From IMG/VR virus record IMGVR_UViG_2778261594_000008: a stretch of 4,350 nucleotides of DNA; one strand, written 5' to 3'. Shown here piece by piece: positions 1,593 to 3,537 of this stretch. The notes beneath the pieces were generated by a model. The model did no database searches and was not told the DNA's origin. It saw only the letters and a list, made by a program, of their open reading frames with translations. This stretch comes from a virus. Taxonomy: Duplodnaviria; Heunggongvirae; Uroviricota; Caudoviricetes. Numbering within the stretch: the first letter of the stretch is position 1; each line of letters starts with the position of its first letter. The translations under genes were made by a program, and so were the position numbers.

Positions 1593-1781
1593 GTGTTAAG
1601 CACTGATCGGTTTATACGTGAAAAAGAATGCGAAAAGCTAACAGGCCTTAGCCGCTCATGCCGCTACCGCCTGGAAAAGGCCGGACAATTCCCATCACGT
1701 CGTAAACTTGGTGGGCGTTCTGTTGGCTGGTCTTTATCTGAGGTTTTGGCCTGGAAGGATAGCTGCAAGGCAGTTCACTAA
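1593..1781 (+). CDS. alpA: AlpA / Vis-family helix-turn-helix regulator (excisionase-like), 62 aa, GTG start
   Basis: Protein ...EKLTGLSRSCRYRLEKAGQFPSRRKLGGRSVGWSLSEVLAW matches the AlpA family pattern (TG.SR...Y.L...G.FP....LG.RSVGW...E...W). RBS AAGGGGG at 1581-1587, 5 nt before the GTG. Sits directly downstream of a P4-type integrase, as is typical. Confidence 0.8.
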   Translation: MLSTDRFIREKECEKLTGLSRSCRYRLEKAGQFPSRRKLGGRSVGWSLSEVLAWKDSCKAVH

Positions 1782-1920
1782 AAAGACTGGCGGCACACAG
1801 TCGCCACACATCCACTAATACAGAGATATAACTATGAAGATTGAATATGCGCCCGAACGTGGGCGGGGATTCGTTCGCCCTGGTGAAACTGAAAAACAAC
1901 AAAATTGGGGTTTTTCAGGC

Positions 1921-1950
1921 ATAAAAAAAGCGGCCCCGATATGGAGCCGC
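1921..1950 (-). terminator. Canonical Rho-independent terminator for the leftward operon
   Basis: On the minus strand: GCGGCUCC, loop AUAUC, GGGGCCGC (8-bp stem with one G-U), then UUUUUUU. Lies about 75 nt downstream of the P1 stop. The plus-strand side is followed only by CTTTCT, so it is a weak terminator in that direction. Confidence 0.7.
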
Positions 1951-2024
1951 CTTTCTGAACAATTAACCTGCTGCGCCTTATGTGTATGTGATCCCAAACA
2001 TAAGCACGGGAATGATAGCCGCTA

Positions 2025-2228
2025 TCAGGCTGGTGGGCAATTACCTTGCTTGTTGGGGCCGTATTGTGCTGCCATTTTCATCCGTTCAGAACGTGAATAT
2101 TTTTTTAGAAACTCATCAAGGACAAAAGCGCATGGAGCGAATCTTTCTGATTCATGCTCGAGCGCCATATTTTCGTGCTCTCTGTTCGTTTTTTGCGATG
2201 GTGTATTGGTTGATTCTTTGTTGGTCAT
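2025..2228 (-). CDS. Small hypothetical protein P1 (67 aa), paralog of P2; unknown function
   Basis: ORF with ATG start. Shares with P2 the N-terminal MTN and a C-terminal motif R[FL][AV]P..F.L[DE][DE]F..KY.R. Preceded by the conserved 44-nt element and followed by the terminator. The overlapping plus-strand ORFs look like antisense artefacts. Confidence 0.6.
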   Translation of the reverse strand: MTNKESTNTPSQKTNREHENMALEHESERFAPCAFVLDEFLKKYSRSERMKMAAQYGPNKQGNCPPA

Positions 2229-2236
2229 TGTGTGTA

Positions 2237-2280
2237 CCTGTAAAGCAATGCGCCGGAGTTCCTCACGCCACGGCGCTGAT
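2237..2280 (-). repeat. Copy 1 of the conserved 44-nt intercistronic element (plus strand CCTGTAAAGCAATGCGCCGGAGTTCCTCACGCCACGGCGCTGAT)
   Basis: 41/44 identical to copy 2 at 2922-2965. As minus-strand RNA it has a 6-bp stem GCGCCG/CGGCGC with a 15-nt loop, then UUGCUUUACAGG leading into the P1 start. Confidence 0.85.
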
Positions 2281-2285
2281 GTTTT

Positions 2286-2465
2286 TTATTCTTTGGGTTC
2301 AATACCGCGTTGCTGTAATTCTTTTCGGATTATTCGTTTTATCCAAGCTGCTAAAGAGTCATCACCGTCTTGTTGTTGTGCTTTTTCCATCTTTTCCCGT
2401 AAGTCAGGATCTAAACGGAACTGGAAAGGAGGATTACCACGCCTTTCATTTTTGTGTGTTGACAC
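2286..2465 (-). CDS. Putative ribbon-helix-helix protein RHH-2 (59 aa, GTG start), paralog of RHH-1; may be degenerate
   Basis: Found by manual translation; not in the supplied ORF track. Sequence VSTHKNERRGNPPFQFRLDPDLREKMEKAQQQDGDDSLAAWIKRIIRKELQQRGIEPKE shows an RHH pattern (beta strand FQFRLDP, helix A, loop, helix B). Same length as RHH-1 and offset by exactly 685 bp. The only in-frame ATG (2390) would give a 34-aa fragment. The GTG overlaps the -35 of the opposing promoter. Confidence 0.4.
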   Translation of the reverse strand: MSTHKNERRGNPPFQFRLDPDLREKMEKAQQQDGDDSLAAWIKRIIRKELQQRGIEPKE

Positions 2466-2486
2466 GTCAATTACACTCCATATAAT
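2459..2486 (+). promoter_or_regulatory. Consensus sigma70-like promoter TTGACA-N16-TATAAT, rightward
   Basis: TTGACA at 2459-2464 and TATAAT at 2481-2486, both perfect hexamers with a 16-bp spacer. Homologous in position to the weaker rightward promoter of module 2 (TTGACG 3212-3217). Confidence 0.45.
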
Positions 2487-2494
2487 GTGTTTAT

Positions 2495-2506
2495 GTGTAT
2501 ATACAC
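2495..2506. promoter_or_regulatory. Perfect 12-bp palindrome GTGTATATACAC over the predicted transcription start; candidate operator
   Basis: Self-complementary. Flanked by GTGT (2487-2490) and ACACAC (2510-2515), giving an imperfect palindrome of about 30 bp. Half-site GTGT(A/T) resembles the module-2 operators. Confidence 0.4.
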
Positions 2507-2532
2507 ATTACACACAACTAGCACAAAAAACA

Positions 2533-2566
2533 ACGCCCCGCAGTGATGGGAACACATACGGGGCGT
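2533..2566 (+). other. GC-rich leader hairpin (module 1 copy): stem ACGCCCCG/CGGGGCGT, 18-nt loop, followed by TCTAACCAA
   Basis: Direct inverted repeat. Homologous to the 3281-3313 hairpin, including one compensatory pair change (C-G to A-T). No U-tract, so not a terminator. Confidence 0.5.
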
Positions 2567-2685
2567 CTAACCAAACCATTAATTGAGGTAACGATTATGG
2601 CTATAAAAGAGCATAGCTTACTCTTTATACACACACAAACGCCCCGGAAACGGAATAATCCGTTTCATAGTTCGGTTTTGTGCAC

Positions 2686-2913
2686 TCATCCTGGCGGTCG
2701 GTTTTTGCCGGATTTAAGCCGCCGTGGGTATTTATCGACAAAATCTTCAAGGGCAAATTTTTCTGGTGGCACTAAGCGCGGCGCTGGTGGTGGTATTTTT
2801 GTTCTGGTTAGTTCTTCCTCAAGTCTGGCGCAGGCTTCTGACTGCCTTTGCCGGATGATTTCATCATCTTGCGTTTGCGTGTCTTGTATTGGTGATAGTG
2901 TGTTGTTGGTCAT
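2686..2913 (-). CDS. Small hypothetical protein P2 (75 aa), paralog of P1; unknown function
   Basis: ORF with ATG start. AGGG RBS-like motif 8 nt upstream inside the end of the conserved element. Shares N-terminal MTN and the C-terminal F.LEDF.DKY.RR motif with P1. Confidence 0.65.
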   Translation of the reverse strand: MTNNTLSPIQDTQTQDDEIIRQRQSEACARLEEELTRTKIPPPAPRLVPPEKFALEDFVDKYPRRLKSGKNRPPG

Positions 2914-2921
2914 GATACTGC

Positions 2922-2965
2922 CCTGTAAAGCAATGCGCCGTAGTACCTCACACCACGGCGCTGAT
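2922..2965 (-). repeat. Copy 2 of the conserved 44-nt intercistronic element
   Basis: CCTGTAAAGCAATGCGCCGTAGTACCTCACACCACGGCGCTGAT. Differs from copy 1 at three positions, all in the predicted loop. Confidence 0.85.
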
Positions 2966-2970
2966 AGTGA

Positions 2971-3150
2971 TTATTCTGATTCTTTGGCCTTGCGACGCTG
3001 GCGGTATTCAACTTCCCGCTTTAATGCAGTTGTAACAAACTGCCCTGTACTTTCGCCGGGCATTTTTACCGCCTCAACATTGTTCATAACTTCATGTGGA
3101 ACCCTTGCCGCAACTGTTTGTGATTTTGCGTTTACTGCTTTTGTCGCCAT
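2971..3150 (-). CDS. Ribbon-helix-helix (Arc/MetJ/CopG-like) DNA-binding protein RHH-1, 59 aa
   Basis: MATKAVNAKSQTVAARVPHEVMNNVEAVKMPGESTGQFVTTALKREVEYRQRRKAKESE fits strand / helix A / G-x-S-T loop / helix B. ATG at 3150 has RBS GAGGGG 8 nt upstream. The track start at 3159 (GTG) would overlap that RBS, so the ATG is preferred. Confidence 0.7.
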   Translation of the reverse strand: MATKAVNAKSQTVAARVPHEVMNNVEAVKMPGESTGQFVTTALKREVEYRQRRKAKESE

Positions 3151-3198
3151 GTTGAGCACCCCTCATAAAAAACAAATGCAGTATGCAGGAAAAAAAAC

Positions 3199-3253
3199 AA
3201 GTGTTCAACACTTGACGTGTTTAACACCTCGATTTAAATTGGTGTTCAACACC
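3199..3253. promoter_or_regulatory. Divergent promoter region with three 11-bp palindromic operator-like sites GTGTT(C/T)AACAC
   Basis: Sites at 3201-3211, 3217-3227 and 3242-3252. Rightward promoter candidate TTGACG (3212-3217), 17-bp spacer, TAAATT (3235-3240). Leftward candidate TTGAAC (3208-3203 on minus), 17-bp spacer, CATACT (3185-3180). The operators overlap both. Confidence 0.5.
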
Positions 3254-3283
3254 TTATTTAGGCAAGGTGTAGAAACGACGAAA

Positions 3284-3310
3284 CCCCGCACTGTAGGAGC
3301 AGTAACGGGG
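3284..3310 (+). other. Leader hairpin (module 2 copy) in the 5' UTR of ORF A: CCCCG ... CGGGG with inner ACUG/CAGU stem, followed by TCTAACCAA
   Basis: Inverted repeat read directly; homologous to 2533-2566. Confidence 0.5.
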
Positions 3311-3342
3311 CTTCTAACCAACAACGTAAACGAGGAGCCGTT

Positions 3343-3537
3343 ATGGTTGCCGTAAATCATATACCACACCTTGTACACACACAAACGGCCTTTGTGTGGC
3401 GTTTTCTGGCACTGAGTGCCGGAGAATCTCAAATCATCCACGTAACCGCCTGGACGGAACGCGAAGCGCGTAACCTTTGCCCGTCCGGTTGTGTTGCTGT
3501 ATTTGCCGCCCGTATTCGCCAGGGGGTAGGCTTATGA
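3343..3537 (+). CDS. Small protein A (64 aa), possibly Icd-like (host cell division inhibitor-like) family
   Basis: RBS GAGGAG at 3332-3337, 5 nt before the ATG. Stop overlaps the start of ORF B (ATGA). The motif FVWRFLAL...WTEREAR...FAARIRQ recalls Icd-like small proteins of P4-like prophages; this is from memory and needs an HMM search. Confidence 0.6.
   Translation: MVAVNHIPHLVHTQTAFVWRFLALSAGESQIIHVTAWTEREARNLCPSGCVAVFAARIRQGVGL

Follow-up and report, generated by a model that had tools for sequence, protein, structure and literature searches.

The window, i.e. the whole 4,350-nucleotide stretch analyzed here (IMG/VR virus record IMGVR_UViG_2778261594_000008, Caudoviricetes), represents, as judged from its gene content, the left end of a phage satellite integrated in Escherichia coli. 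Between the alpA gene of this satellite and the Icd-like gene heading its rightward operon lie two units in series, A and B, each composed of a leftward gene pair, which encodes a small ribbon-helix-helix (RHH) protein and a second small protein (P), and of a rightward control region. We focused on segment 2459-2645, which is the control end of unit A. This unit, one of a family of RHH repressor/operator/promoter cassettes, has probably been maintained as a functional cassette, and the RHH and P genes of the family share a frame that is free of stop codons on their antisense strand.

Anatomy of the two units and of the satellite

Unit A (2025-2645) is comprised of P1, a spacer hairpin, RHH-1, an operator and promoter, a leader, and the first 15 codons of icd. 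A preliminary description of the window used the RHH names in the opposite sense: its RHH-1 corresponds to RHH-2 here (2971-3150), and its RHH-2 to RHH-1 here (2286-2465). The features of unit A are:

2025-2228, minus strand: P1, 67 aa (phrog_21027, function unknown)
2251-2277: spacer hairpin between RHH-1 and P1 (GCGCCGGAG...CGGCGC), with a counterpart at 2935-2961
2286-2465, minus strand: RHH-1 (type Rc), a 59-aa Arc-like RHH repressor candidate, with the same start in RefSeq
2459-2486, plus strand: predicted promoter P_A, TTGACA (2459-2464)-N16-TATAAT (2481-2486), 12/12 consensus positions
2493-2508: perfect 16-bp palindrome ATGTGTATATACACAT with core GTGTATATACAC, candidate operator of RHH-1 at the predicted transcription start
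2533-2566: leader hairpin A (-18.4 kcal/mol, z = -3.6)
2566-2574, plus strand: box TCTAACCAA, 3' of the leader hairpin, conserved by sequence comparison
2585-2641, plus strand: retained translation start, with GAGG (2585-2588), ATG 2597 and 15 codons of icd/ash type (MAIKEHSLLFIHTQT)
2628-2641: TACACACACAAACG, with a counterpart in unit B
2630-2666: junction, where the homology to icd stops after ...CAAACG (~2641)
2647-2666: hairpin GAAACGGA-ATAA-TCCGTTTC within the junction region

The perfect promoter of the preliminary description is present and is the sole perfect sigma-70 consensus site in the window, where promoter-like sites as such show no excess (6 found, 6.5±2.6 expected). The palindrome reported there proved to be the core of the longer one listed above, which sits directly 3' of the -10 hexamer, and the leader hairpin, box, GAGG, ATG and TACACACACAAACG islands are all in place, each matched by a counterpart within 3280-3387. 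The GTG start of RHH-1 (2465) overlaps the -35 hexamer of P_A and its Shine-Dalgarno sequence is located inside the promoter spacer, so that leftward and rightward transcription must overlap. RHH-1 matched the PHROG family 'Arc-like repressor' (phrog_228, E = 1.5e-6) and, below the cut-off, NCBIfam YlcI_YnfO_N (E = 5e-4); a Pfam search returned no match, and a sequence search of the PDB nothing significant (best ArtA, E = 0.98). The inner stem of the leader hairpin displays compensatory changes among 14 variants.

Unit B (2686-3389) has the same components, namely P2, a spacer hairpin, RHH-2, a control region, a leader, and icd:

2686-2913, minus strand: P2, 75 aa, always 3' of the junction in related loci
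2971-3150, minus strand: RHH-2 (type Re), 59 aa, YlcI/YnfO family (NCBIfam NF041551, E = 1.4e-16; phrog_949)
3212-3240, within control region 3201-3252: predicted promoter P_B, TTGACG (3212-3217), 17-nt spacer, TAAATT (3235-3240)
3201-3211 and 3242-3252 (GTGTTCAACAC) and 3217-3227 (GTGTTTAACAC): three candidate operator copies around P_B
3280-3320, plus strand: leader hairpin B and TCTAACCAA (3312-3320)
3343-3537, plus strand: gene for the Icd-like protein heading the rightward operon (NCBIfam NF033153, E = 3e-18)

The operator copies around P_B fit the consensus GTGTT(C/T)AACAC (n = 3). Units A and B are colinear, with an overall identity of 56%. The preliminary description considered 2459-2645 a diverged duplicate of 3212-3389, which is correct for the leader and the first 15 codons: positions 2527-2641 and 3272-3387 align with a local score of 46, compared with 16.5±2.4 (maximum 31) in 1000 shuffles, and the homology at the leader is limited to about this stretch. 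The promoter/operator parts (2459-2526 and 3212-3271) have little in common beyond TTGAC and are of different types. The repeated unit is also larger than was proposed, since 2025-2645 is colinear with 2686-3389 and contains a second conserved island of 81% identity in the RHH-P spacer (2218-2292 and 2903-2977). What the units share are conserved linkers; the cassettes between these are heterologous, the candidate repressor being Arc-like in unit A and of the YlcI/YnfO class in unit B. Stacking of two heterologous cassettes, or a later cassette exchange, therefore appears to fit the data better than a plain tandem duplication. The RHH-P spacer is the best-conserved stretch of both units (81-93% identity) and folds as a 12-bp GC-rich hairpin, which in unit A is followed by TGATGTTTTTTATTCTTT on the plus strand, giving it a terminator-like look. 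Within the conserved 5' end of icd, codons 12-19 contain a hairpin CACACAAACGGCCTTTGTGTG followed by GCGTTTTCTG (3378-3398), and the truncation point of the icd stub in unit A (~2641) corresponds exactly to the loop of this hairpin. Downstream of P1, a hairpin GCGGCCCCGATATGGAGCCGC at 1925-1960, preceded by an A-run and followed by CTTTCTG, continues into TTTTTTTAT on the minus strand and is a strong candidate terminator for the RHH-1/P1 operon.

The remainder of the window belongs to the satellite:

1-1218: tyrosine integrase gene (int) of the satellite
1593-1781, plus strand: alpA, AlpA-family regulator/excisionase (Pfam PF05930, E = 5e-18), annotated in the related locus L001

After alpA, the gene order is the two leftward gene pairs, the Icd-like gene, and small rightward open reading frames (ORFs). 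Locus L001 (strain RM10466) is 96% identical across the entire window and continues beyond it with genes for a DUF4222 protein, a DUF927 primase, Ssb, the major capsid protein, a head-decoration protein and TerS; the element is about 12 kb long and is inserted between the two halves of tqsA. With int, alpA, a replication module, packaging/capsid genes and a chromosomal attachment site insertion, it is a satellite of the phage-inducible chromosomal island (PICI) type. A complete head module of the capsid-forming PICIs (cf-PICIs; capsid, portal, protease, connectors, TerS and TerL) was not found in the L001 annotation, which is possibly incomplete and lists capsid, decoration and TerS only. Some portion of the window was matched by 1753 of 5426 complete E. 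coli genomes (approximately one third).

The interval between int and alpA contains runs of ~10-bp repeats (ACAACGTGA, ACAATGTGC, ACAACGTGAC, ACAATCACGA; CCTGACACAATCAGACACATC) at 1263-1303 and 1513-1560, separated by an AT-rich stretch with a perfect hairpin (1405-1433); these repeats may be arm sites of the integrase or AlpA sites at the alpA promoter. In one satellite lineage (L005 and L030), the interval from alpA to P3 contains a strong intrinsic terminator and, after it, a plus-strand gene of 192 aa, which on sequence grounds resembles BRO/antirepressor genes. The first rightward gene exists in two forms, a short Icd-like one (64-66 aa) and one of ~185 aa named 'ash family protein' in RefSeq, with the leader and codons 1-24 in common (MVAVNHIPHLVHTQTAFVWRFLAL; seen in L201, L006, L012, L016, L022 and L027); in L201, a truncated ash copy (4843-5181) is located upstream of a separate icd.

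Cassette types and the two-module layout in related loci

Approximately 80 related loci were compared, 72 from a scan of IMG/VR with the leader motif and eight added from E. coli. A scan of genome contigs for the 14-base pattern CGGGGCNTCTAACCA gave, almost exclusively, chance matches in unrelated phyla and was set aside. In the sampled loci the same leader, consisting of the hairpin, TCTAACCA, a Shine-Dalgarno sequence and the ATG of a gene beginning MV/MA..H..HTQT, is found 3' of at least 13 distinct promoter/operator sequences, and the TCTAACCAA box is also kept in leaders outside those picked by the search pattern. At least 13 RHH types occur, each paired with its own palindrome, and mixed pairs were not seen. 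The palindromes flank or overlap the -35 and -10 hexamers. Examples of these candidate operators and of the repressor types to which they are tied are:

GTGTTCAACAC: Re
GTGTAAGACAC: Rh
GGTGTATTTCACC: Ri
ATGGTAATTACCAT: Rb
GTGTGTTTCATG/CATGAAACACAC: Ra
GTGGCTGACAC, GGTGCAAGTCACC and AGTGGTCACCT: further RHH types

Such type-matched pairs are the signature of predicted repressor/operator specificity cassettes. The suggestion in the preliminary description that the two palindromes reflect different operator specificities of the two RHH proteins is thereby strongly backed.

The cassette type of unit A consists of the Rc protein, the TTGACACGT.AATTACAC promoter and a GTGTA..ACAC palindrome. Comparison of one- and two-module relatives, as had been proposed, revealed that this type stands alone in L012, L016 and L065, where it is the sole cassette directly 5' of a full-length first rightward gene, and therefore elsewhere provides the operon's only cassette promoter; the promoter type itself precedes a full-length first rightward gene in L012, L016, L047 and L065.

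The two-module layout is recurrent and its order is invariant: P1 and a first RHH gene leftward, a leader rightward, the stub and junction, P2 and a second RHH gene leftward, and finally a leader and icd rightward. The left cassette, which always carries P1, is of type c, b or i (three types) and the right one of at least eight types, in at least 12 combinations. The stub and junction are near-identical in all two-module loci, RHH-1 is intact and 98% identical in all of them, and the only damage observed is a frameshift in P1 of L029; the segment is thus not freely decaying in relatives. P2 exists in two variants of 67% mutual identity that adjoin the same junction. Since three left types, at least eight right types and both P2 variants flank it, the junction must have persisted through extensive exchange. 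Of 5426 complete E. coli genomes, 115 contain this junction (2567-2700), which in 110 has an identity of 95% or higher. Exchange is also apparent within units: in L035, P1 adjoins Re, and P and R types recombine at the RHH-P spacer. The conserved linkers, i.e. the leader with its stub and the spacer hairpin between R and P, are evidently recombination joints, as far as the comparison of sequences can tell. The preliminary description had left it undecided whether the segment is a duplication relic or functional. Its use as sole cassette elsewhere, the at least 12 combinations around one junction and its presence in 115 of the 5426 genomes argue that unit A is maintained as a predicted heteroimmune regulatory cassette rather than being a decaying relic.

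In five other viral contigs (L034, L050, L051, L066 and L070), a leader of hairpin, TCTAACCAA and Shine-Dalgarno sequence directly follows a TATAAT and lies 5' of unrelated genes, which by motif look like GIY-YIG-type (FYVYVHRR..DG.VFYVGKG) and HNH/AP2-type endonucleases. Because it precedes such unrelated genes, the leader appears to act as a portable element for expression or termination.

The stop-free antisense frame

Two long plus-strand frames cross the leftward genes of the window:

1834-2586, plus strand: 250-codon stop-free frame across antisense P1 and RHH-1
2597-3355, plus strand: 252-codon stop-free frame, opened by the retained ATG and crossing antisense P2, RHH-2 and the promoter/leader of unit B

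The preliminary description saw no plausible gene body after ATG 2597. The frame that starts there runs until its TAA (3353-3355), 10 nt past the ATG of icd, and such frames are conserved family-wide. The TGA (2584-2586) of the upstream frame overlaps the GAGG, 11 nt 5' of ATG 2597, and its conserved N-terminus MKIEYAPERGRGFVRPG follows alpA. The retained start was locatable in 15 further two-module loci, where the frame of the stub ATG is open for 205-358 codons, so that TCTAACCAA, GAGG, ATG and an open frame of this length, all of use for rightward expression only, are kept in 16 of 16 such loci. In L052, L197, L198 and L199 the stub frame is in frame with icd, and in L198 and L199 a single open frame of 607 codons spans the distance between the alpA end and the stop of icd. 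The interval from the upstream plus-strand gene to icd is thus tiled by open frames of 205-607 codons.

The frame concerned is the antisense frame with offset 1, in which wobble positions fall on the wobble positions of the sense gene. Across the 4842 codons of 72 unique RHH/P segments, which represent 14 gene types, it contained no stops, compared with 49±5.6 stops expected from a synonymous-codon null, and the other two antisense frames of the same segments contained 279 and 177. With one representative per type, 0 stops were observed against 12.0±2.9, and zero was reached in one of 1000 simulations. The codon context of the RHH/P genes is correspondingly restricted, none of 365 His/Gln codons being preceded by a codon ending in T and none of 44 Tyr codons by one ending in T or C. 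In other satellite genes the offset-1 frame has stops at 2-5% of the codons (int 13/405, primase 16/710, capsid 12/351). A base-composition effect was rejected as the cause, because of the 21% A of the plus strand, the 279 and 177 stops in the other frames and the normal stop densities of neighboring genes. Most of the frames end at -9 or -11, inside the next Shine-Dalgarno sequence, or at +12, or are in frame with the gene that follows; this clustering is partly trivial, as the leader closes two frames just 5' of the ATG, whereas it is not trivial that the 600-1800 nt upstream are free of stops.

Searches of ORFs 1834-2586 and 2597-3355 against Pfam, PHROG and NCBIfam returned no match. The antisense translations are 0.44-0.60 identical, compared with 0.43-0.64 for the sense proteins; selection at the protein level was rejected as the explanation, this identity being a by-product of the frame geometry with its shared wobble positions. 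As judged from these comparisons, the conserved property is the openness of the frame and not a protein.

Further observations concern the surroundings of the frame. The start of ORF 1834-2586 (ATGAAGATTGAATATGCGCCCGAACGTGGGCGGGGATTCGTTCGCCC, MKIEYAPERGRGFVRPG; 1834-1890) lies ~55 nt past the alpA stop and is conserved (cf. L008, L016, L020, L063, L014 and L015); in several loci the open frame begins right after the alpA stop codon, in the frame of alpA. The same ORF remains open across the hairpin at 1925-1960. In E. coli K-12, ylcI of the DLP12 prophage (L075, 6252-6446) is divergent from the next rightward gene nohD, which encodes a homologue of the small terminase subunit, so that the divergent YlcI arrangement is not confined to satellites; ylcI alone, with 0 stops in 65 codons, is uninformative. 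A tblastn search with RHH-2 against the GenBank phage collection returned no match, and hence no control homologues in a phage context.

A possible second entry to the rightward operon

The layout in the preliminary description, a second rightward promoter module antisense to the neighboring leftward genes, is supported as a predicted layout. From the observed anatomy, the type match between repressors and operators, the conserved architecture and the stop-free frame, we read the segment as part of a second and complete cassette of repressor, operator and promoter, whose control end it forms and whose repressor-gated P_A would serve as a second entry to the rightward operon, a reading for and against which we find the balance about even. 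That it also acts as a translated read-through device across unit B is a more tentative proposal. The same degree of reserve applies to the possibility that RHH/P cassettes are selected at their wobble positions to keep one antisense frame open for translated rightward transit.

Under this scheme, which predicts from sequence that P_A is active and repressed, that the frame is translated and that unit B is affected, RHH-1 would bind the 16-bp palindrome at the P_A start, shutting P_A off and autoregulating its own overlapping leftward transcription. Removal of RHH-1, or read-through from alpA, would yield a leadered plus-strand RNA, on which ribosomes would load at the retained icd Shine-Dalgarno sequence and ATG 2597, cross antisense P2 and RHH-2, and stop 10 nt inside icd. 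Being translated, the transcript would be shielded against both Rho and hairpin terminators, ribosomes would be brought to the icd start, and RNA polymerase converging from P_A would counter the expression of RHH-2/P2. P_A would be a second, differently keyed entry to the replication/packaging operon. In E. coli, Rho terminates untranslated and antisense RNA, and hairpin terminators are ineffective inside translated regions; keeping the frame open would thus allow rightward transcripts to extend as far as icd. The pattern of stops suggests that selection may act on the translation of the antisense read-through RNA itself.

Several observations weigh against this scheme. The stop-free frame is also found in single-module loci, even in the L003 type with its blocking upstream leftward gene, so that it cannot be tied specifically to P_A. 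In L005 and L030 the open frame overlaps the end of the plus-strand BRO-like gene and not of alpA, and in L027, L054, L071 and L011 the frames stop 100-135 nt short of the next start. The conservation of P_A is confounded, as its -35 hexamer overlaps the RHH-1 start and its spacer and -10 hexamer lie in the 5' untranslated, autoregulatory region of RHH-1. The lack of decay at the junction could partly reflect recent spread together with recombination at the linkers, recent spread being conceivable because the junction copies are 95-100% identical. A T-rich tail follows the hairpin stem on the minus strand in every cassette type, which would suit a leftward terminator. Finally, the published model of Gram-negative PICIs involves activation by AlpA only, without a repressor.

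The main rival explanation, which we consider unlikely, is that unit A is kept for RHH-1 only, as a second immunity specificity acting in trans, with P_A, leader and stub as incidental features or linkers. The overlap of the RHH-1 start with the -35 hexamer and the position of its Shine-Dalgarno sequence in the promoter spacer are in favor of this, as are the up to seven window-matching places per E. coli genome, which make interactions in trans plausible, and the free shuffling of cassettes at conserved linkers, exemplified by P1 next to Re in L035 and by the recombination between P and R types. What it leaves unexplained is the preserved Shine-Dalgarno sequence, ATG and 205-358-codon frame in all 16 start-locatable two-module loci, and the match between the stub frame and the stop-free antisense frame of unit B. 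It is somewhat doubtful that hairpin 2533-2566, read in the preliminary description as a leader, is mainly a leftward intrinsic terminator or insulator, which would end the RHH-2/P2 operon before cassette A and, in single-module elements, keep antisense transcripts out of the control region. Its GC-rich stem is followed on the minus strand by TTGTTTTTTGTG, T-rich tails are found in all cassette types although the flanks are otherwise type-specific, and on the minus strand of unrelated phage contigs TTTTCG comes after the hairpin; moreover, it is the window's only good terminator candidate for the RHH-2/P2 operon, P2 having no other convincing one, whereas P1 has a clear one at 1925-1960. On the other hand, a terminator scan did not call the hairpin, the stem of which is interrupted and the outer loop long, the conserved TCTAACCAA, Shine-Dalgarno sequence and ATG downstream have no obvious leftward role, and in distant phage loci a TATAAT lies 6-8 nt 5' of the hairpin, as expected for a 5' leader. 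The two roles are compatible, and the leader hairpin may equally serve as the leftward terminator.

A neutral relic seems improbable. It would have arisen by one unequal recombination that joined icd codon 15 to the sequence 3' of a P gene, leaving 2459-2645 unused and recent, and the single junction sequence common to all two-module loci, which points to a single origin, and the 95-100% identity of its copies would agree with this; the three left and at least eight right types and the 67% identical P2 variants instead indicate persistence through extensive exchange, and RHH-1, operator, promoter, Shine-Dalgarno/ATG and frame are all intact, the L029 frameshift being the sole defect. That ORFs 1834-2586 and 2597-3355 encode functional proteins antisense to the RHH/P genes is very improbable: the family-wide open frame, the antisense identities close to those of the sense proteins and the conserved N-terminus of the first ORF could be cited for it, but the products match no family in the databases searched, are Cys/Ser-rich and wholly different between cassette types, their identity is expected from the coinciding wobble positions, and the frame also crosses promoters, operators and hairpins. 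Even more remote is a leader that encodes a processed antisense RNA of the C4/CI type controlling icd, as in P1 immI or P4 immunity. The Icd-like gene 3' of the leader, as icd follows c4 in P1, and the stable leader hairpin recall such systems; yet Rfam gave no match anywhere in 2400-3400, even at E <= 1, the leader is only ~100 nt long, and repeated targets complementary to a loop were not identified, although no dedicated complementarity search was made. In the whole window, the Rfam scan at E <= 1 yielded two unrelated weak matches outside this region, BSnc120 (1369-1447; 27.9 bits compared with a gathering score of 114) and ST7-OT3_4, which were dismissed as chance.

Cassettes of this kind, repressor/operator immunity cassettes, are a known class, to which the satellite adds one surprising property, the stop-free antisense frame. 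The immI region of phage P22 comprises the RHH repressors Mnt and Arc, the overlapping promoters Pant and Pmnt, and the sar antisense RNA. As in P22, a small leftward RHH repressor candidate and a predicted strong rightward promoter share one control region with a palindromic candidate operator at the promoter, divergent units overlap, and RHH-1 matches the 'Arc-like repressor' family; antisense transcription, part of the P22 circuit, is here proposed. Unlike P22, the element is a satellite in which an Icd/Ash-type first gene leads into replication and packaging, two heterologous cassettes are stacked, and the repressor genes are crossed by a stop-free antisense frame; by sequence, RHH-1 could not be placed with the P22 proteins through either Pfam or the PDB. 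The immI operon of P1 and P7 consists of the c4 antisense RNA, icd and ant. An Icd-like first gene after a structured leader is shared with it (NCBIfam NF033153), but a C4-like RNA was not detected here with Rfam, and an RHH protein with its operator, not a processed antisense RNA, appears to exert control. In the exchangeable immunity cassettes of lambdoid phages (imm-lambda, imm434, imm21), repressor and cognate operators likewise travel together, with conserved linkers for shuffling and many heteroimmune types; here, however, the repressors are predicted RHH and not helix-turn-helix proteins, and two cassettes are placed in series, joined by a truncated first downstream gene. Coliphages 186 and P2 have convergent pR/pL promoters and transcriptional interference. 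Similarly, a predicted strong promoter in the lytic direction faces the repressor promoter in the satellite, and by analogy its firing could lower repressor expression; the convergent stretch is ~700 bp here, with two complete genes, and is kept translatable.

Gram-negative PICIs and cf-PICIs, such as EcCICFT073, EcCIEDL933 and EcCIMP1, are the same class of element, with int, alpA and then a rightward operon, and AlpA has been named their master activator. In this literature YlcI/YnfO and Icd figure only in lists of accessory genes of satellites; in the papers that were searchable, we found neither RHH/operator cassettes between alpA and the operon nor their stacking described, and likewise no stop-free antisense frame and no involvement of Rho in PICIs.

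Exchangeable RHH cassettes between alpA and the replication/packaging operon are widespread, sometimes two deep, and could decide by which helper phages or co-resident elements a satellite is induced or silenced. That one antisense frame lacks stops throughout the family is a sharp and testable signature. If the proposed scheme is true, rightward transcripts from alpA, from other upstream genes or from an upstream cassette promoter would silence the repressor that they traverse and would escape Rho and hairpin terminators, which would explain how the rightward operon is expressed across opposing regulatory genes. This would be an unusual case of coding potential that is kept for the protection of a transcript and not for a protein. 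Two stacked heteroimmune cassettes would then amount to a two-key control of satellite induction, and a repressor layer together with a device for translated antisense transit would be added to the AlpA-only model of Gram-negative PICIs.

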